NCBI GenBank assembly: GCA_963789635.1
Contig: CAWBLF010000003.1
Span: 140,364 to 204,363, forward strand
DNA: 64,000 nt
Source of the DNA: an uncultured bacterium
Lineage (GTDB): Bacteria > Patescibacteriota > Minisyncoccia > Phycocordibacterales > Zambryskibacteraceae
Direction: 5' to 3'
Of the stretch, positions 1 to 34,075 are shown piece after piece. Under the pieces are notes generated by a model, which worked only from the letters and a program-made list of their open reading frames with translations, made no database searches and was not told the DNA's origin. Position 1 is the stretch's first letter, and each line of letters begins with the position of its first letter. Position numbers and translations under genes: made by a program.

Positions 1-846
1 CGTGATGACAAGAAAGCCATCATTATCGACGGCAAAGAAGTGCTTTTTGTCAGTGAAAAAGACCCGGCAAACCTTCCTTGGAAAAGTTTGAATATAGATG
101 TTGTAGTCGAATCTACCGGTTTCTTTACCACATATCAGGGAGCAAAAGCTCATATTGACGCGGGTGCGCGCAAGGTAGTCATATCTGCTCCGGTGAAAGG
201 TGACCCTGTGCCGGGCATAGAAGGAGCTACAGTACTAATGGGAGTTAACGAAGAAAAACTTGGAACCTGCGTTATCAGTTCCAATGCTTCATGTACGACA
301 AATGCTTCGAGTCCTCTCATCGCCATCCTTGACGAATCGATTGGTATTGAAAAAGCTATTTTGAATACCGTTCACGGCTACACGGCATCACAATCACTGG
401 TTGATGGGCCATCGAAGAAAGATCGTCGTGAAGGACGCGCCGCTGCCCAAAACATCGTGCCCTCTTCCACTGGCGCGGCTATAGCCGTGACTCAAGCATT
501 TACCAAACTCAAAGGTTTGTTTGACGGAGTTTCAATGAGAGTGCCGGTCATCGCCGGTTCCATTGTTGATGTCACCTTTATTGCCAAGAGAGATACCACA
601 GCACAGGAGGTGAACGCAATACTCAAAAAAGCTTCCGGAGAAAGTCGTTGGAAAGGTGTTTTTTCCGTGACGGAAGAAGATTTGGTTTCCACAGACATTC
701 TCGGCTCGCATTTTGCTTCAATTGCCGACCTACAATTTACCCGTGTCGTAGGAGGCAATCTTGTCAAAGTTTTGGCATGGTACGACAACGAAATGGGATA
801 CACATATACACTTGTAGATCATGTGATTAAAACTGGAAGAAAATAA
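1..846 (+). CDS. gap: glyceraldehyde-3-phosphate dehydrogenase (type I), C-terminal part; 5' end lies upstream of the window
   Basis: Frame 1 is open from base 1. The translation carries the active-site motif SNASCTTN and the C-terminal motif WYDNEMGY. TAA stop at 844-846. Confidence 0.92.
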   Translation, partial: RDDKKAIIIDGKEVLFVSEKDPANLPWKSLNIDVVVESTGFFTTYQGAKAHIDAGARKVVISAPVKGDPVPGIEGATVLMGVNEEKLGTCVISSNASCTTNASSPLIAILDESIGIEKAILNTVHGYTASQSLVDGPSKKDRREGRAAAQNIVPSSTGAAIAVTQAFTKLKGLFDGVSMRVPVIAGSIVDVTFIAKRDTTAQEVNAILKKASGESRWKGVFSVTEEDLVSTDILGSHFASIADLQFTRVVGGNLVKVLAWYDNEMGYTYTLVDHVIKTGRK

Positions 847-864
847 AATAAGAAATGATAAATA
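846..864. repeat. left arm of a 19-bp perfect inverted repeat bracketing the four-helix-bundle gene (aaataagaaatgataaata)
   Basis: Exact reverse complement of 1248-1266. Begins at the last base of the gap stop codon. Confidence 0.9.
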
Positions 865-1236
865 ATGGATAACCCAAGACGAACCCATTTTAGATTCCTT
901 GATTGGTCAGTTTATAAAGACGCAAAACTTTTACATAAAAGTGTTTTAAAAGTTGTTGAAGGAATACCAAAAGAGTATAAGTACAATATTGGTGATCAAT
1001 TGCTTAAATGTAGTCTTTCAGTTGCATTGAATATTGCAGAAGGCTCTGGTAAACATTCAAATAAGGATTTGAATAGGTTTATAAACATTGCGCTCGGTTC
1101 ACTCTATGAAACCGTTGCTGCAATTGATATTTTGGAGGATATGAAGCTTGTCAAAACCAATGAACGTGAAGAAATCAGGATATTGTGCATTTCCATATCG
1201 AATCAGCTCGGCGGTTTAAAGAAAAAACTGGTATAA
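865..1236 (+). CDS. four-helix-bundle protein (23S rRNA intervening-sequence protein / S23p / Avd-like family)
   Basis: 123-aa ORF. Family hallmarks are present: NIAEGSGKHSNKD, then F..IALGSLYE. Similar in layout to the second copy at 32994-33368. Confidence 0.85.
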   Translation: MDNPRRTHFRFLDWSVYKDAKLLHKSVLKVVEGIPKEYKYNIGDQLLKCSLSVALNIAEGSGKHSNKDLNRFINIALGSLYETVAAIDILEDMKLVKTNEREEIRILCISISNQLGGLKKKLV

Positions 1237-1247
1237 TTTGAGTGCCG

Positions 1248-1266
1248 TATTTATCATTTCTTATTT
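1248..1266. repeat. right arm of the 19-bp perfect inverted repeat (tatttatcatttcttattt)
   Basis: Exact reverse complement of 846-864. Ends 16 nt upstream of the rpiB ATG. Confidence 0.9.
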
Positions 1267-1282
1267 CTCATTTACTACTACC

Positions 1283-2720: not shown

Positions 2721-3590
2721 ATGGCGAATTTGGATGACTCAAAAATAAAAGAGCTCGAAGTCACCGCGAACAATATTCGTGAATCGATAATAGAAATGCT
2801 TCTCGAAGCGAAAAGCGGGCATACTGCCGGTCCCCTAGGTATGGCGGATATTTTCACATACCTTTATTTTTACGGACTGAAGCATGACCCCAAGAACCCT
2901 TTTTGGCCGGAGCGCGACAGACTGATCCTTTCCAACGGTCATATTTGTCCGGTGCTTTATGCCACTATGGCGCACGCAGGGTATTTTTCGGTGGACGAAC
3001 TGAAAACCTTGCGCAAATTTGGTACACGCCTACAAGGCCATCCGCATCGTGAATGGCTTCCTATACTCGAAACTTCTTCTGGTCCACTCGGTGAGGGATT
3101 GTCACAGGCGGTTGGTATGGCGCTTGCGGATAGGATTGACAATGGCACCTCATCGGGCAAGTTCTTTTATTGTTTGATGGGGGACGGCGAGCTTGACGAG
3201 GGCGTAAACTGGGAAGCTATGATGCTGGCCGGCAAAGAAAAAATTCATAACCTTATTGCGGTGGTGGATCGCAATAATATTCAGATTGACGGTTTTACAG
3301 AAAATATTATGCCTCTTGATTCACTCAAGGCGAAGTGGGAAGCCTTCAATTGGCACGTGGTGGAATGTTCAGGGCATGATTTTCGTGCTATAGACGAAGC
3401 TTTTGCCGAAGCGAAAGGAGTTTTTGAAAGACCGTCGGTCATCATTGCACACAATATTCCGGGCAAAGGGGTGAAAGAGTTTGAACGCAGATTTGAATGG
3501 CATGGAAAACCACCCAATAAGGAGGAAGCGGATATGGCCTTGCGTGAATTGCGCACTTTGGGCGGAAAAATAATGAGCGAGCATCAATAA
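2721..3590 (+). CDS. tkt: transketolase, N-terminal (thiamine-diphosphate binding) subunit
   Basis: 289 aa with GHP, GDGELDEG and N..IAVVDRN motifs. Followed by the C-terminal subunit gene. Confidence 0.9.
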   Translation: MANLDDSKIKELEVTANNIRESIIEMLLEAKSGHTAGPLGMADIFTYLYFYGLKHDPKNPFWPERDRLILSNGHICPVLYATMAHAGYFSVDELKTLRKFGTRLQGHPHREWLPILETSSGPLGEGLSQAVGMALADRIDNGTSSGKFFYCLMGDGELDEGVNWEAMMLAGKEKIHNLIAVVDRNNIQIDGFTENIMPLDSLKAKWEAFNWHVVECSGHDFRAIDEAFAEAKGVFERPSVIIAHNIPGKGVKEFERRFEWHGKPPNKEEADMALRELRTLGGKIMSEHQ

Positions 3591-17717: not shown

Positions 17718-18494
17718 ATGAAAGAGCACATGCAAAATGAAAATAGTGATATTGGACCAAAAGTAGATTTGAGAACTGTTTATGATGAAGACGCGAAAAT
17801 TGCGGAAATAGAAAAACGTGAAAATTTTCTTCGCACGGTTGGTTTTTCTGATGAGGAGATTATGAGGTTAAAGGATAATAGGCCGACATTATATGATATT
17901 GTCAATGTTCAAAATACTTTGGATTCGTTGAAACAAATCGGTTTTACCAATCCCGAAAAGATGATCACCAGTTTACCAGCTATTTTGGGCTACAACATCG
18001 AGAACATCAAACAAAAAATCGATGACCTCAAGGTTCTCGGTTTTACCAATCCCGAAAAGATGATCACCAGTTTATCAGCTATTTTGGGCTACAACATCGA
18101 GAACATCGAAAGGAAAATAAGCGCTTTGGAAACAATTTTTAAACTTTACAGTATAAGAGTTGATGTCAAAGAATTTATTGAAAAAGATTTGTTAATATTG
18201 GGTGCAAAAATTGATAAGGTATGGATTATAGCAAGGGCGTTACGTAATCTTGGTATGAATCCAAGTGATATAAACAATGTGTTTCTTTCACGATTACGAT
18301 CATCCAATATAACAGATACCACGGCGGCTCTTACGACCTTGTTGGCGGAGATGAAAAAGGACGTTATTCCAGCGGAAATATTCAAAGCTATTCGTGTTGC
18401 CAAAAAATTGCCTAAAGATGAAAAACAACAGATTATTGAGTCACAGAAAAGTTCTAAGTTGGCAAGACGATACAAACGAGGATATGGCAGTTAG
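17718..18494 (+). CDS. mTERF-like helical repeat protein (hypothetical)
   Basis: Repeats of the form LGFTNPEKMITSLPAILGYNIENIKQKIDDL resemble the mTERF motif (GFs..ei..ii...P.iLg.s.e.nl..ki..L). This is a motif-level call only. Confidence 0.5.
   Translation: MKEHMQNENSDIGPKVDLRTVYDEDAKIAEIEKRENFLRTVGFSDEEIMRLKDNRPTLYDIVNVQNTLDSLKQIGFTNPEKMITSLPAILGYNIENIKQKIDDLKVLGFTNPEKMITSLSAILGYNIENIERKISALETIFKLYSIRVDVKEFIEKDLLILGAKIDKVWIIARALRNLGMNPSDINNVFLSRLRSSNITDTTAALTTLLAEMKKDVIPAEIFKAIRVAKKLPKDEKQQIIESQKSSKLARRYKRGYGS
17949..18118 (+). repeat. 99-bp-period tandem duplication inside the mTERF-like gene
   Basis: 71 nt at 17949-18019 recur at 18048-18118 with one mismatch (tttaccagc versus tttatcagc). 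Confidence 0.9.
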
Positions 18495-23560: not shown

Positions 23561-23604
23561 ATGTATTACTTCCACTACAGTATACTGTAGTGGAAGTAAT
23601 ACAT
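23561..23604. promoter_or_regulatory. 44-bp perfect palindrome (atgtattacttccactacagta|tactgtagtggaagtaatacat); candidate operator and/or terminator
   Basis: Perfect dyad verified base by base. Shares the 20-bp core cactacagtatactgtagtg with 24049-24090. Lies 32 nt downstream of the HTH gene stop. Confidence 0.6.
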
Positions 23605-23636
23605 CATGTAAGTAGGTAAACTTTAAATTTATTAAA

Positions 23637-24032
23637 TTAGAAAATTTTTAGATTTTTGTGAGGTCTTCTAACTCGCGGAGGAAGTATTCCATACAGCAAT
23701 CTTTCAATTTCGTCAGCCAACTTGCCTTTTTTGGAGATTATTGAAATGGTTTCTTTGTATTTTCCAGCATCCATTGCAAGTGAGAATTTTGCGATAGTGG
23801 TTGGGCTAAGATGAATAATTTCAGAGATATTTTCGAAGGATATGTTCTTTTCCAGCATATAAATCATTGTGATTCTCTTTGCAAACATGATTTTTTCTGT
23901 TTTCGTGAATAACTCTTTCATTACCGAAAGGGAACGTGAACGGTCATCTGCCTCTTGAAATGTCTTGGCAAATTGAGTCATTATTTTGTTGAAAACTTGC
24001 TGGTCTATTTTCTTTTGAGATATATGTGGCAT
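23637..24032 (-). CDS. TrpR-like (YerC/YecD family) helix-turn-helix protein
   Basis: 131 aa. The pattern L.T..E..M.AKR......L.......I......S..TI is typical of Trp-repressor-related YerC/YecD proteins. Confidence 0.6.
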   Translation of the reverse strand: MPHISQKKIDQQVFNKIMTQFAKTFQEADDRSRSLSVMKELFTKTEKIMFAKRITMIYMLEKNISFENISEIIHLSPTTIAKFSLAMDAGKYKETISIISKKGKLADEIERLLYGILPPRVRRPHKNLKIF

Positions 24033-24048
24033 GTTTTTGTTACGAGTG

Positions 24049-24090
24049 ACTATATATTACACTACAGTATACTGTAGTGTAATATATAGT
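24049..24090. promoter_or_regulatory. 42-bp perfect palindrome (actatatattacactacagta|tactgtagtgtaatatatagt); candidate operator of the HTH gene
   Basis: Perfect dyad verified base by base. Lies 16 nt upstream of the HTH start codon. Same 20-bp core as 23561-23604. Confidence 0.6.
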
Positions 24091-26559: not shown

Positions 26560-26990
26560 AAGGCTAAGTCTCGAATGTGATTATGATTGTAAATTCCCGA
26601 GGAATCGCCCTAAAATAGGTCACCGAGGACTTAGCAAAAGTATTTTTCTGGTGAAAAATCTTTTTCCCATACCTCGTCCCGCCTTTGCGGGACTCCGGTC
26701 TTGCGAAGCTCCAAGTATTCGCTTCTCACCTTAGTTTCAAATTCTCAAGGCTAAGCCTCGATGCCTTAGGTCACTGACGATAAATTCCCGAGGAATCGCC
26801 TAAATACAGGCCCTCTAATTGTGTATCCGAATAGGTCACCGAGGACTTAGCCTTAGTTTCAAATTCTCAAGGCTAAGCCTCGATGCCTTAGGTCACTGAC
26901 GATAAATTCCCGAGGAATCGCCCTAAAATAGGTCACCGAGGACTTTAAGCCTCGATGCCTAAAGGCAAGGCGAAACCTCGAGAATTTACA
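26560..26990. repeat. largest array of the CGAGG/CCTCG-core modular repeats (R4), including one 151-bp element and a 72-bp unit repeated at 122-bp period
   Basis: Modules taggtcaccgaggactta, aaattcccgaggaatcgcc, ccttagtttcaaattctcaaggctaagcctcgatgcctta and ggcgaaacctcgagaattt, in several copies. 26729-26800 equals 26851-26922. Confidence 0.9.
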
Positions 26991-29900
26991 AGGCTTTGGC
27001 CTTTTCGGCGATGAGACTGATGTCACCGTTTCTTTTGGAAATTTTGGCAAAAATACCAATGCATTTTTCCTTTTGAAAAAGATCTTTAAATTCGACCAAT
27101 GTGCGCGGGAAGACGACCAACTCTATTGATCCTGTCATATCAGTAAAACGAGTAAACAGCATACGTTCGTTGTTTTTGGTAACGACATCTCGCACTTCTT
27201 CCACAAACCCTGCTATGGCCACGCTGGCTCCCTCACGAGGACTTGCCAGCACCTCTGCAATTGTCACTCCCTTGCCTTTAATTTTTTCTTGATATTTGTC
27301 CAATGGATGGCCGGAGATATAAAGGCCAAGCAGTTCTTTTTCCCAGGCCAGTTTGTCTTCGTTGGTGGCCGGTGGCGTAGGGCGGAGAGAAATGTCAGGA
27401 GCAGATTTTTCTCCCGCAATACCAAACAAAGAATCTTGATTTTTCGGACCCTGCATTCTTTCTTTGTGATATTCCAAAAGGAATTCCAAGTTGCCAAGAA
27501 GCGAACCGCGTTCGCCCAGGTCATCCATGGCGCCACATTTGATAAGCGCTTCAAAAGATTTTTTATTTAAATTGCGATCCTTGATGCGGTCCAAAAAATC
27601 TGCAAGTGAAGAAAATTGTCCATTCTTTTTGCGTTCTTTGACAATATAATCCGCTATGCCTTCACCAAAATTCTTGATGGTAGTTAATCCAAAACGGATT
27701 TTGTCTTCTTCGCCTTCCTTGCGGACCACCGAAAATCCCTGATAACTTTCGTTTACAGACGGAGGAAGAACAGGAATCTTCATACGCTTGCATTCGTTTA
27801 TGAATTCACCAATTTTTTCAATGTTTCCGGAATCAGCCGTCAGAACTGCGGACATATAAATAGCGGGATGATGTGCTTTGAGATAAGCGGTCTGATAGGC
27901 CACGAGGCCATACGAAGCCGCGTGAGCCTTGTTGAAACCGTATCCTTGAAATGGCTCAAAAAGTTTCCACATTTCTTCCGCTTTTGCTTTTGAAAGACCG
28001 CCATGTTTTATGCATCCATCTACGAAAATAATGTGTTGTTTGGCCATTTCTTTCGGAATCTTTTTACCAACGGCTTTGCGAAATTTATCCACTTCACCCC
28101 AAGTGTATCCGGCGACATTGATAGCGGTCATAAGCAAATCATCCTGGTAAACTAGCACTCCATAAGTGGGGGCCAAGAAATCTTTCATTTTTGGGTGTTT
28201 GTAAATTATCGGCTTTAATCCGTGCTTGCGGGCAATATATTCATTTATATTGTCCATTGGTCCCGGACGGTAAAGCGCTACCATGACATTGATGTCGTCA
28301 ATGGTTGTGGGTTTTAGGTCTGTCAGATAACGCGTCATCCCGTCGCCGTTTAATTGGAACAAACCTTCTGTTTCTCCGCGCGACAAAAGTTCAAAAGTTT
28401 TTTTGTCATCAAGAGGAATTTTTGTGATATCCAATACGGCGTTTTCGATTGCTTCAATGCGCTCGATCGTATCTGCGATGATGGAAAGATTTTTGATTCC
28501 CAAAAAGTCAAATTTCAACAAGCCCGCTTCTTCAATGGAATGCATATCATATTGGGTGATGATTTTTCCTTCTTCTTTTGAATCAAGCTGAAGCGGTGTG
28601 TAGTTCGTAAGCGCCGTTGGAGCGATGACGACGCCGGCGGCATGGACAGAGATGTGTCGGGCGCATCCTTCAATTTTTTTAGCTAAATTTATTATTTCCT
28701 TTGTGTCGGTTTCGGTGTCGTAAGCCGCTTTGAGTTCTGGCACCAGTTCAAAGGCATGATCTATGGTCATGGGGAATCCTTGTGAACCCATTGGAATAAG
28801 TTTGGCGATTCTGTCTCCTATGGTGTAAGAGTAGCCGAGAGCGCGGGTAACATCGCGTACGGCCCCACGCGCCATCATTGTGCCGAAAGTTCCCACTTGC
28901 GCCACTTTGTCTACTCCATATTTTTGTCTGGCATATTCTATTACCTCGTCGCGACGGTCGTCGGCCAGGTCAAGGTCAATATCGGGAGGGGACGGGCGTT
29001 CGGGATTGAGGAATCTCTCAAAAGGAAGATTGTATGTAATTGGGTTCACCGTAGTGATACCGGTCAGAAAGCTGATCATAGAGCCGGCCGCTGAACCTCT
29101 GGTGTTTGTGAGGATTTTGTTTTCATGAGCAAAGCGAATAAGGTCTGCGACAACAAGAAAATATGGTTCATAACCCTTGGCGCCTATAATTTCCAGTTCA
29201 TAATCTATTCGTTTTTGAATTTCTACGGAATTTTCTATGCCGTGAGTTATCAGTCCTTCCATTGCCAATCGCCGTAGCTCTGCCGCGGATGTTAATCCCG
29301 ACTCTACCGTGAATGAAGGAAAAACCCATTTTCCAAGATTCAGCTTAAGATCACATCGGTCAATAATTTTCTGAACGTTTGCGAGAGCTTCCGGTAAATC
29401 GGCAAAAAGTTCGTTGGCTCTTTGTTGGTTGATAAATGAAAAATCTTCATTTTGTTCGGTATCGGCGCGTTCGCGAATGCCCCCATTCTGAATGGAGAGA
29501 AGTGTTTCCCTTGCGGTTTTATCTTCCGGGTCCAGGTAGTACACATCGTGGGCCGCCACAATGGGAACATTTTGTTTGTCGGCAAAAGCGACAAGTGCTT
29601 TCATTCGTCCCTCATGGCCTTCTATTTCATGGTGGTGTGTAACTTCAATAAAAAAATCGTCACCAAATATCCTTTTGTACCATTTTGTTATCTCTATGGC
29701 TTTGTCAGGTTCACTGCCTCGTAAAATACTGGCAATTTCTCCTGAAAAAGAAGGTGAAATGCATATGAGCCCTTCGGAATATCTTTCCAAAATTTCTTTG
29801 TCGATTCTGGGTTTGTAATAAAAACCTTCAAGATGAGCCTTTGTGACAAGAGCAATTAAATTTTTGTAACCGGTTTCATTTTTCGCCAATAGAATCAGTC

Positions 29901-32049: not shown

Positions 32050-32964
32050 ATGGCAAACCGGCACCTTGCAAGATCAGTGGTAATGCAGACACTCTTCGAA
32101 TGGGACTTCGCAAAACGATCCCGTGAAGAGGCATTTGGCATACTCAAACGAAACAAAGATGAGTTTGCTCCAGGGGTTACCGAAACATCCTTTATGGACG
32201 GTCTTTTGGAATCCGTTTTGGACAAGCAAAAGGACATTGACAGCATCATTACCAAAGCGGCACCCGATTGGCCAATTGAAAAAATATCAGTGATTGATCG
32301 CAATATTTTGCGATTGGGTCTTTCGGAATTGCTCTTCTCCGACGCAGAACAAGTGCCACCAAAAGTGGCTATCAACGAAGCCATTGAGCTAGCAAAATCA
32401 TTCGGTGGAGAAACATCGGGTAAATTTGTAAACGGAGTCCTCGGCGCAGTCTACAAAGAAATGGGGGAACCCGGCAAAGACGAAGTTTCCACCAAGAAAA
32501 AAACAATCAAGAATATTCCAGATGACAAGCTGACCATCGAAGACCTAGGTGGGGCTCTGGTTTATTCTATTTATGAAGGTGTCATATATTTGGCTTTGGT
32601 TCATGATGTCTTCGGTCACTGGACTCTTTCAAAAGGAAAGCTGGAAAATGGCGAGTCGGTGAAAGACGGGACAACACGAGAGATAAAAGAAGAGATTGGT
32701 ATTGATATAAATATTGAAGAAGATTTGGGGACAAACGAATACATTGCATTTCATCCGGAGAAAGGTAAGCTGAAAAAAAGAGTTCATTACTTTCTTGCAA
32801 AAGCGGACTTTCAGCCACTGACACTTGAAGCTCACGAGTCTCGTGGCGGATTGACTGACGCGCAATGGTTCCCGGTAGAAAAAATCGGCGAACTCAATTT
32901 TTATGACGATATCATGCCGTTGGTGACCAAAGGCATTGAAATGATGGGAAAGAAGGAAGTTTAA
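32050..32964 (+). CDS. nusB: NusB antitermination factor fused to a C-terminal NUDIX hydrolase domain
   Basis: The first ~145 aa carry NusB motifs (R..A.Q.LF..DF, DRNILRLG..EL, INEAIELAK.FG). The C-terminal part carries a Nudix box, GKLENGESVKDGTTREIKEEIGI. Confidence 0.8.
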   Translation: MANRHLARSVVMQTLFEWDFAKRSREEAFGILKRNKDEFAPGVTETSFMDGLLESVLDKQKDIDSIITKAAPDWPIEKISVIDRNILRLGLSELLFSDAEQVPPKVAINEAIELAKSFGGETSGKFVNGVLGAVYKEMGEPGKDEVSTKKKTIKNIPDDKLTIEDLGGALVYSIYEGVIYLALVHDVFGHWTLSKGKLENGESVKDGTTREIKEEIGIDINIEEDLGTNEYIAFHPEKGKLKKRVHYFLAKADFQPLTLEAHESRGGLTDAQWFPVEKIGELNFYDDIMPLVTKGIEMMGKKEV

Positions 32965-32993
32965 AAGTTTTGAAGTTTGTAAGTTTTTAAGTT
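32964..32993. repeat. left arm of an imperfect 30-nt inverted repeat bracketing the second four-helix-bundle gene
   Basis: aaagttttgaagtttgtaagtttttaagtt pairs with 33346-33375 at 26 Watson-Crick pairs plus 1 G-U out of 30. Begins at the last base of the nusB stop codon. Confidence 0.8.
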
Positions 32994-33368
32994 ATGGCCA
33001 CAAGACTAGAGAATCTAAAAATATATCAGATGGCGCGTGAGCTGGAACTTCGGGTTTTTGAATTAACGAAAAGTTTTCCAACCGCAGAAAATTTTAGAAG
33101 CATAGATCAATTGCGCCGTTCGTCTTCATCTGTTACCAATAACATTGCTGAATCTTATAACAAGAAGTCAATAAAGGATAAAATAAGAATTATTAATGAT
33201 ATTGTTAAGGGTGAAGCAAACGAAACAAGGTCTAATCTTGAAATGTTTCAAGAAAAGAAGTTTTTCAAAGACCAAAATCTGATTGATAGATACACAGAAC
33301 TCATAAAAGCAGTCAGCGGATATATAGCATTTCTCAAAACTTCTCAACTTAACAACTTATCAACTTAA
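32994..33368 (+). CDS. four-helix-bundle protein (23S rRNA intervening-sequence protein / S23p / Avd-like family)
   Basis: 124 aa with L.IYQ.A.EL...V..LT..FP and DQLRRSSSSV.NNIAE motifs. Confidence 0.85.
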   Translation: MATRLENLKIYQMARELELRVFELTKSFPTAENFRSIDQLRRSSSSVTNNIAESYNKKSIKDKIRIINDIVKGEANETRSNLEMFQEKKFFKDQNLIDRYTELIKAVSGYIAFLKTSQLNNLST

Positions 33369-33375
33369 AAACTTT
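33346..33375. repeat. right arm of the inverted repeat bracketing the second four-helix-bundle gene
   Basis: aacttaacaacttatcaacttaaaaacttt. Overlaps the ORF's 3' end and stops 3 nt before the rnc ATG. Confidence 0.8.
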
Positions 33376-33378
33376 TTT

Positions 33379-34075
33379 ATGGACGGTTTTAATCAATTTG
33401 AAGAACGAATAGGTGTGATTTTCGAAAATAAAAACTTGCTCAAGCAGGCGTTTGTTCATCGTTCATATTTAAATGAAAACAAAGAATTTCCTCTAGGCCA
33501 CAATGAACGTCTGGAGTTCCTCGGAGACGCAGTTCTTGAACTGGTGATTACCGACTATCTTTACACCAAATACCCCGAGAAAAACGAAGGAGATATGACA
33601 TCGCTTCGCTCTGCCTTGGTCAACGCCACCGCTCTTCATAAAGTGGGTGCCAGATATTGGTATCAATGACCTACTTCTGCTCTCCCGAGGTGAATCTAAG
33701 GACCTTGGGCGTGCTCGTCAGTACATTCTTGCCAATACAATGGAGGCATTGATTGGCGCCATTTACCTTGACCGTGGATATGATATGGCCAAGAAATTTA
33801 TTTATGAATTCATAACTCCGCTTTTGGACAAAGTGATTGAAGACGAAAGCTGGATTGACTCCAAGAGTTTATTCCAAGAAAAAGCCCAAGATCATGCAGG
33901 GGTAACTCCCGCATATCAAACCTTGAAAGAAACTGGTCCCGACCACGACAAGCATTTCACAGTCGGCGTGTATTTGAAAAATGAACTCATTGCTCAAGGC
34001 GAAGGGGATTCCAAACAGGAAGCGGAGCAGGCAGCAGCTCACAATGCTCTCAAGGCAAAAGGTTGGAATAATTGA
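33379..34075 (+). CDS. rnc: ribonuclease III, interrupted by an apparent 1-nt insertion (+1 frame change) near 33650-33652
   Basis: Frame 1 gives NERLEFLGDAVLEL ... LRSALVNATALHKVGA. Frame 2 continues DIGINDLLLLSRGE ... MEALIGAIYLD plus a C-terminal dsRBD. Removing one base from gcca restores VGADIGIN. Confidence 0.85.

Follow-up and report, generated by a model that had tools for sequence, protein, structure and literature searches.

The stretch of DNA described here, 64,000 nucleotides of contig CAWBLF010000003.1 from an uncultured bacterium of the Patescibacteriota and referred to below as the window, carries a small gene for a four-helix-bundle (4HB) protein between a nusB-NUDIX fusion gene and rnc, the gene for RNase III. 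The 4HB gene is bracketed by two arrays of short repeats in opposite orientation, and its product belongs to the protein family of the intervening sequences (IVSs) that are found in rRNA genes. The reading favored here, to which about an even chance is given, is that the cassette would be an IVS-type element hosted by an mRNA operon and not by an rRNA gene, with a stem that probably serves as a site for RNase III. The features of the locus are listed below.

32050..32964, plus strand: nusB-NUDIX fusion gene, 304 aa, the upstream host gene (Pfam NusB and NUDIX; stop codon TAA at 32962-32964)
32957..32993, plus strand: 5' arm, five AAGTT units at 32957, 32965, 32973, 32981 and 32989, with an exact 8-nt spacing
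32963..33376, plus strand: predicted stem-bracketed unit, in which 32963-32993 pairs with 33346-33376 and the 4HB cistron forms the loop
32994..33368, plus strand: 4HB gene, 124 aa, 23S rRNA intervening-sequence protein/Avd-like family (PF05635, TIGR02436)
33338..33378, plus strand: 3' arm, five AACTT units at 33338, 33346, 33354, 33362 and 33370, with an 8-nt spacing, plus a T run
33379..34075, plus strand: rnc (RNase III), the downstream host gene, split into the open reading frames (ORFs) 33379-33669 and 33647-34075

Periodic arms and the predicted stem

The cassette is closely fitted between its host genes, with gaps of 29 nt between nusB-NUDIX and the 4HB gene and 10 nt between the 4HB gene and rnc. 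The first AAGTT unit of the 5' arm (32957) lies within the last two codons of nusB-NUDIX, the stop codon is part of the first repeat unit, and the last unit adjoins the ATG of the 4HB gene directly. The 3' arm is mostly coding, as it contains the codons for the C-terminal tail of the 4HB protein, SQLNNLST, together with its stop codon (33366-33368). The end of this arm lies 0-3 nt 5' of the rnc ATG. An earlier note on this DNA had claimed that 32964-32993 pairs with 33346-33375, that the cassette starts at the last base of the nusB-NUDIX stop codon and stops 3 nt short of the rnc ATG, and that both arms are built on an 8-nt aagtt-type period. The pairing was recovered at exactly these coordinates, both boundaries were confirmed, and the period is present in all five AAGTT and all five AACTT units. 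In addition, the repeat array begins 7 nt earlier than claimed, within nusB.

Using an inverted-repeat search, arms of 31 nt (32963-32993 and 33346-33376) were found that are 87% complementary and contain a perfect core of 13 nt, resulting in a stem of ~30 bp that is interrupted by three single mismatches. In the minimum free energy fold of a 446-nt region (z -3.15), the outermost helix is formed by these arms. When joined by a GAAA loop, they fold at -26.7 kcal/mol versus -11.2 +/- 2.7 kcal/mol for shuffled sequences (z -5.75), and none of the 200 shuffles was as good. The ungapped inverted-repeat score of the cassette is 19, whereas 227 control genes of related loci have a median of 7 and a 95th percentile of 9.7. 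A chance origin of the arms was rejected on the basis of this score and of the fold energy. Most of the complementarity is supplied by the repeated 5-nt core, and the 3-nt spacers pair little above chance.

The enclosed four-helix-bundle gene

The protein encoded in the loop belongs to PF05635 (23S_rRNA_IVP; E 9.7e-23, 80.9 bits versus a cut-off of 33.8, residues 6-105 of 124) and to TIGR02436 ("four helix bundle protein"; E 1.7e-22, 79.7 bits versus a cut-off of 24), with both scores above the curated cut-offs, so the four-helix-bundle assignment made from the bare sequence stands. At E <= 1e-5, 240 homologues were found. The family profile also leads to two structures in the PDB, 2GSC (E 2.5e-8) and 2RLD, a link at the sequence level; both were deposited with five chains. 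The cassette carries no Shine-Dalgarno (SD) sequence and no promoter of its own. SD-like motifs are present for 4 of the 42 genes in the window, which equals the background (10.7%); the genome makes no use of SD sequences.

PF05635 is homologous to Avd. This accessory protein of diversity-generating retroelements (DGRs) binds nucleic acids and reverse transcriptase and belongs to a homologous four-helix-bundle fold family (PMC10053308). In contrast to Avd, the 4HB gene has nusB and rnc as its neighbors, and no reverse transcriptase or template and variable repeats are found nearby. The Avd model NF033474 gave no match for the nusB-rnc 4HB protein. A DGR was rejected as a reading of the locus, given the absence of a neighboring reverse transcriptase and the housekeeping genes on both sides. 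Also rejected were an integron cassette (no integrase neighbor, and two arms in place of a single 3' site) and a CRISPR-like array (8-nt units and no unique spacers).

Insertion into the nusB-rnc junction

The NusB-NUDIX fusion is kept in at least 80 related metagenome contigs, and the synteny of nusB-NUDIX and rnc in ~75 metagenome relatives that are 58-73% identical. The gap between the two genes is -8 to +25 nt in ~46 of these 75 relatives, and a filled site of 420 nt is present only in the closest lineage (NusB 93% and 4HB 88% identical), where the cassette was recovered from four independent assemblies. Therefore, the cassette is an insertion into an originally gapless nusB-NUDIX/rnc junction. 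A single filled lineage and ~46 empty sites also give the sporadic, insertion-like distribution that is characteristic of rRNA IVSs. No target-site duplication could be recognized when filled and empty nusB-rnc sites were compared. The closest 4HB relatives with a known context (69-71% identical) are located between pheS and pheT, and these also have AAGTT/AACTT arms.

The rnc leader of E. coli is a precedent for autoregulation by RNase III, and the earlier note suggested that the stem is placed in front of rnc as a target for the same autoregulatory processing. A long stem lies immediately upstream of rnc in both cases, here a stem of ~30 bp that is separated from the rnc ATG by 3 nt, and ~20 of the 75 relatives have a hairpin-forming insert of some kind at nusB-rnc. 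However, comparative genomics of the nusB-rnc junctions gave no specific support for this role. At this junction the cassette is restricted to one lineage, and the ~46 relatives with gaps of <=25 nt leave no room for a stem, indicating that a leader stem of the E. coli type is not a conserved feature. The inserts of the relatives are heterogeneous in sequence, and hairpins at other junctions of the same loci are about as frequent (roughly 7-9% each), without any enrichment at nusB-rnc. The cassette family itself is mainly found at nusG-rplK, pheS-pheT and gap-rpiB, junctions that are unrelated to rnc. Unlike the E. coli leader stem, the stem described here encloses a whole gene and is a lineage-specific insertion. 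In the window, rnc is also split by a frameshifting 1-nt insertion, which is described below. That the stem is there because of rnc is considered very unlikely, and the adjacency to rnc is most simply taken as coincidental.

Inserts of 70-150 nt that form a hairpin and contain no ORF were also observed at the nusB-rnc junction of relatives (L080, L145, L150, L128, L137 and L152; L082-L084, L121 and L147). Several of these hairpins have periodic arms, built from TAATTAG, AATTTAGA or GTATGAA/ATACTAA units, and a separate family of ORF-less inserts at this junction is bounded by CCCGTTAGAA...TTCTAACGGGA. Similar ORF-less hairpins are found at other junctions (L134, 1443-1585; L133, 447-589).

Conservation of the arms

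Compared to the orthologue of the closest lineage (L001), 8 of the 78 arm positions differ (10%; 4 of 37 in the 5' arm and 4 of 41 in the 3' arm). All of these differences are located in the spacers, and every core is invariant. Four-fold degenerate sites differ at 47-51% (nusB 55 of 117, 4HB 16 of 33, rnc 19 of 37). The arms are under purifying selection, diverging about five-fold slower than the four-fold sites. The stem of the orthologue has an energy of -26.0 kcal/mol (z -5.8), and its best register is slipped by one 8-nt unit. For the window/L001 pair alone, each cassette's own arms pair 3-5 kcal/mol better than chimeras of the two.

Homologous cassettes across phyla

Between 59 and 61 distinct homologous cassettes were surveyed in GTDB genomes of Patescibacteria (many classes), Bacteroidota, Ignavibacteria, Chlorobiota, Opitutaceae and others. 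Ungapped complementarity scores were used instead of RNAduplex energies of 60-100-nt flanks, which were noisy because long bulges are allowed. A score of >=12 was obtained for 71% of 59 cassettes versus 4.7% of 86 control genes from the same loci, and with 80-nt flanks 79% of the cassettes are beyond the 95th percentile of the controls. The arms are arrays of 2-7 units with spacings of 8 nt (172 cases), 7 nt (84) or 9 nt (44). The type of unit depends on the cassette and includes AAGTT, TAGTT, CAGTT, GAGTT, CTAGT, TGGTT, GGAGA, GCGGATT and others. In 35 of 42 cassettes, an upstream xAGTT unit has AACTx' as its downstream counterpart (majority base; A-T 18, T-A 14, C-G 2, G-C 1). Between co-directional neighbors, 48 cassettes are in the sense orientation and 2 in antisense. 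Recurrent junctions are nusG-rplK (12-16 cassettes), pheS-pheT (8) and gap-rpiB (4), and AAGTT/AACTT arms are also found in relatives at the latter two. A scan of viral contigs gave one weak match at 31% identity, which indicates that the nusB-rnc 4HB subfamily is not phage-borne.

A second cassette of this kind is present in the window, so that the 64 kb hold two cassettes with unrelated arms.

846..1273, plus strand: cassette 1, with a 4HB gene (865-1236) between gap and rpiB

Cassette 1 has a perfect 19-nt inverted repeat (846-864 and 1248-1266), and its arms are periodic as well, with 7-nt AAAT/ATTT units. Its protein is a member of PF05635/TIGR02436, is 33% identical to the nusB-rnc 4HB protein and has a weak match to NF033474 (18 bits versus a cut-off of 80 bits). 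In other genomes (L016, L023 and L046), the gap-rpiB junction holds another 4HB subfamily with AAGTT/TAGTT arms. The claim that the two cassettes share their architecture and have unrelated arm sequences agrees with these results, and the same situation recurs in dozens of relatives. The further claim, that the structure and not the sequence is conserved, is correct in one respect: complementarity is kept across repeat units, as seen from the covariation in 35 of 42 cassettes. It needs to be qualified within a subfamily, where the arm sequence is also conserved and the cores are invariant between orthologues.

The tight fit of the cassettes allows an explanation without cleavage, in which the stem would have a cis effect on translation or stability by joining the nusB stop to the rnc start, by relaying translational coupling from nusB to 4HB to rnc, or by shielding the mRNA from exonucleases. 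Here and in most relatives, the arms are flush with stop and start codons, the interval between the 4HB stop and the following start has a median of ~30 nt and is often 1-10 nt, the insertions are located in junctions that are normally tightly coupled, and the genome does without SD sequences. However, tight boundaries are a trivial outcome of insertion into a gap of 0-10 nt, and a constant cargo from the same protein family is left unexplained. This explanation is regarded as quite improbable.

Composite cassettes were observed in L015, L028 and L061 and in L038 and L039 (about 2770-3420), with the order 5' arm, small ORF or ORF-less hairpin, 3' arm, 4HB gene and again a 3' arm; the small ORF in L038 encodes a 62-aa hydrophobic peptide. 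A very stable GCGAAGC/GCGTAGC mini-hairpin motif is present in some arms (L008, L034, L039 and L046).

A proposed intervening sequence in an mRNA operon

In the Coxiella burnetii 23S rRNA, an IVS of 428 nt with a 28-bp terminal stem and an S23p ORF is cut by RNase III at mid-stem (PMC4990558). PF05635 ORFs have also been found in insertions in the 16S and 23S rRNA of the Candidate Phyla Radiation (CPR) (PMC11270868), which links the rRNA and mRNA contexts. The nusB-rnc cassette resembles the rRNA IVSs with an S23p/PF05635 ORF of Leptospira, Coxiella and CPR bacteria in several ways. The same protein family is encoded in the loop, the size is similar (about 415 nt versus 428 nt in Coxiella), and complementary arms at the ends form a stem of ~28-32 bp in both; rRNA IVSs are closed by terminal stems of at least about 20 bp, and the cassette is closed by one of ~30 bp and -26.7 kcal/mol. 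In addition, both have a sporadic, insertion-like distribution and are transcribed within the host RNA. The host is different: the cassette is located at the junction between two protein genes of a polycistronic mRNA, nusB-NUDIX and rnc, rather than in an rRNA helix (helices 9, 25 or 45 of the 23S rRNA, or the 16S rRNA). Also, the arms are homogeneous tandem octamer arrays that can pair in several registers, and the 3' arm is partly coding. Excision by RNase III is known for Coxiella, whereas here it is a prediction.

The following course of events is proposed. An element of ~415 nt, consisting of a PF05635 gene flanked by octamer arrays in opposite orientation, (AAGTTNNN)5 ... (AACTTNNN)5, was inserted at the nusB-NUDIX/rnc junction in the recent ancestor of this organism, a Paceibacteria-type Patescibacterium. 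The 4HB cistron would be read within the nusB-4HB-rnc transcript, in which the arrays could zip into a stem of ~30 bp with its feet touching the nusB stop and the rnc start. By analogy with the 23S rRNA IVSs, this double-stranded RNA would most likely be cut by RNase III. Cutting would set the 4HB cistron free as an RNA that is closed by the stem, and the messages of nusB and rnc would be parted. As all units are alike, the arms would act as a zipper that can pair in several registers, and the stem should therefore survive spacer mutations and the gain or loss of units. Stem formation in vivo, RNase III cutting and a role of the 4HB protein are what we infer from this analogy.

Several observations weigh against this proposal. 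Among 13 AAGTT-type cassettes, own arms pair at -17.7 kcal/mol and swapped arms at -16.4 kcal/mol (p 0.13), and the spacers are as complementary in the true unit order (0.645) as when permuted (0.663; p 0.36). The arm mismatches comprise 26 G:U and 40 A:C and lack an RNA-specific wobble signature, in a test with low power since most mismatches are in unconstrained spacers. From the arm swaps, the spacer permutation and the absence of a G:U excess, it follows that complementarity is maintained per repeat unit and not base by base, and the selected feature may be the repeat unit itself rather than the pairing. Approximately one quarter of the homologous cassettes are composite, have no convincing 5' partner or show same-sense repeats on both sides (L033, L034, L039 and L061). 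At gathering thresholds, Rfam recognized one tRNA in the 64-kb window, no rRNA and no family at the cassette. Finally, rnc in the window is frameshifted by a 1-nt insertion near 33653 (GCCAGATATT here, GCC-GATATT in L001, where rnc is intact and encodes 231 aa). This may be an assembly error or a real pseudogene, in which case it would matter for excision by RNase III; the frameshift is known from one assembly, and the only other contig of the same strain ends before the site.

Complementarity at the level of the unit fits a register-tolerant stem and, equally, a single recognition motif that is arrayed in opposite orientations. In the latter case, the units would be binding sites, on RNA or DNA, of an oligomeric 4HB protein resembling the Avd pentamer, with autoregulation, protection of the stem or holding of cleaved halves as its function, and the complementarity would result from the presence of one site in both orientations. 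This would account for cores that are invariant while the spacers drift, and for complementarity that is confined to the units. It would also fit the count of 5 + 5 units, which the nusB-rnc cassette shares with its orthologue and several relatives, the five chains of 2GSC and 2RLD, and the homology to Avd, which binds nucleic acids and reverse transcriptase (PMC10053308). However, proteins that are 57-66% identical to the nusB-rnc 4HB protein are accompanied by other cores (AAGTT, TAGTT, CAGTT and TGGTT), the number of units ranges from 2 to 7 without a sharp mode at 5, and ORF-less hairpins with similar units occur far from any 4HB gene. We know of no sequence-specific binding in the PF05635 family, and binding sites are considered an improbable explanation of the arms.

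A different possibility is that the cassette is active at the level of DNA. The arms would then be terminal inverted repeats or single-stranded DNA hairpin signals of a non-autonomous cassette that a recombinase or transposase mobilizes in trans, with the RNA stem as a by-product. The presence/absence polymorphism at nusB-rnc and the spread of the family over many junctions are in line with this, as are the ORF-less hairpins of similar periodic units at junctions in relatives and the occupation of gap-rpiB by two 4HB subfamilies that are 33% identical and have unrelated arms. A lack of preference for G:U over A:C is also expected of a strand-symmetric DNA signal, and Y1 transposases of the insertion sequence IS200/REP-associated tyrosine transposase (RAYT) type and a 42-nt palindrome are found near two gap-4HB-rpiB loci. 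Against this, no Y1 (IS200/RAYT-type) homologue is present in the window or beside most cassettes, in a search that did not cover other transposase and integrase families, and no target-site duplication is visible. There are no near-identical copies, as the two cassettes of the window are 33% identical, and the family is nearly absent from viral contigs. Moreover, the cassettes appear to be vertically inherited at one junction with arms under purifying selection, unlike the decaying terminal repeats of a dead element, and the 48:2 sense bias demands an extra assumption. A DNA-level element is therefore regarded as unlikely, though less so than the other alternatives discussed here.

The Y1 transposase genes (PF01797, IS200-like and RAYT-like) are located at 1131-1841 in L016 and at 1195-1908 in L046, ~1.2 kb upstream of the gap-4HB-rpiB cassettes, and the 42-nt palindrome flanks the gene in L016.

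The comparison with hairpin repeats that are associated with RAYT/IS200-like Y1 transposases, such as repetitive extragenic palindromes (REPs), bacterial interspersed mosaic elements (BIMEs) and miniature inverted-repeat transposable elements (MITEs), is similarly divided. Both are hairpin-forming elements that fill small intervals between co-transcribed genes. Relatives have ORF-less versions, and some related genomes carry Y1 transposase genes. In contrast to these repeats, the cassette has a conserved protein gene in its loop, its arms are tandem 7-9-nt units instead of a unique palindrome, and neither a Y1 homologue nor multicopy identical repeats are found in the window.

Going back to the IVS-type reading, a broader and quite speculative version of it, in which little confidence is placed, is that PF05635 cassettes are general cross-phylum "intervening sequences for any RNA", selfish or domesticated, that insert not only in rRNA but also at operon junctions. 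A register-tolerant zipper stem of tandem 7-9-nt units, excised by RNase III, would neutralize the insertion at the RNA level, and a pentameric 4HB protein would bind the arms with about one unit per subunit, controlling cleavage or holding the severed host RNA together. The ORF-less periodic hairpins and the short ORF-less rRNA IVSs would be decayed or minimal forms.

A full-text literature search returned papers on IVSs and S23p, on Avd and on CPR rRNA insertions, and none on PF05635 cassettes at mRNA junctions or on periodic complementary arms. The family has so far been discussed almost only for rRNA or as the DGR protein Avd. New here is an IVS-like element outside rRNA, which shares the protein, the size and the stem with rRNA IVSs and differs in not being inside an rRNA gene. 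Ordinary junctions of mRNA operons carry this gene-in-a-stem architecture in members of the Patescibacteria, Bacteroidota, Ignavibacteria, Verrucomicrobia and others, and rRNA IVSs may have to be recast as a special case of a broader element. According to the proposal, ends made by RNase III should lie within the arms, operon mRNAs should be split at the cassettes, and 4HB proteins should bind the periodic arms. In terms of annotation, it would account for many small "four helix bundle protein" genes that are wedged between housekeeping genes, and it marks the recurrent junctions nusG-rplK, pheS-pheT and gap-rpiB as places where streamlined genomes tolerate insertions.

Other inserts and repeats in the window

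The pheS-pheT junction, which in relatives is a hot spot of 4HB cassettes, holds another insert in the window, a 258-aa ORF (17718-18494) without arms that starts 5 nt past the pheS stop and ends 12 nt before the pheT start. This ORF contains internal repeats of ~40 aa (GFTNPEKMITSL.AILGYNIENI). The non-coding spacer between thrS and dnaE (26587-26991), which has no Rfam match, is filled with direct repeats of 43-82 nt, among them three copies of TAAATTCCCGAGGAATCGCC... that recur every 122 nt, and also contains an imperfect inverted repeat of 42 nt. A TrpR-like gene of 131 aa is located on the minus strand at 23637-24032 and has a weak match to PF01371 (region 23561-24090). It is bracketed by perfect palindromes of 42-44 nt, at 23561-23604 and 24049-24090, which have the common core ACTACAGTATACTGTAGT.

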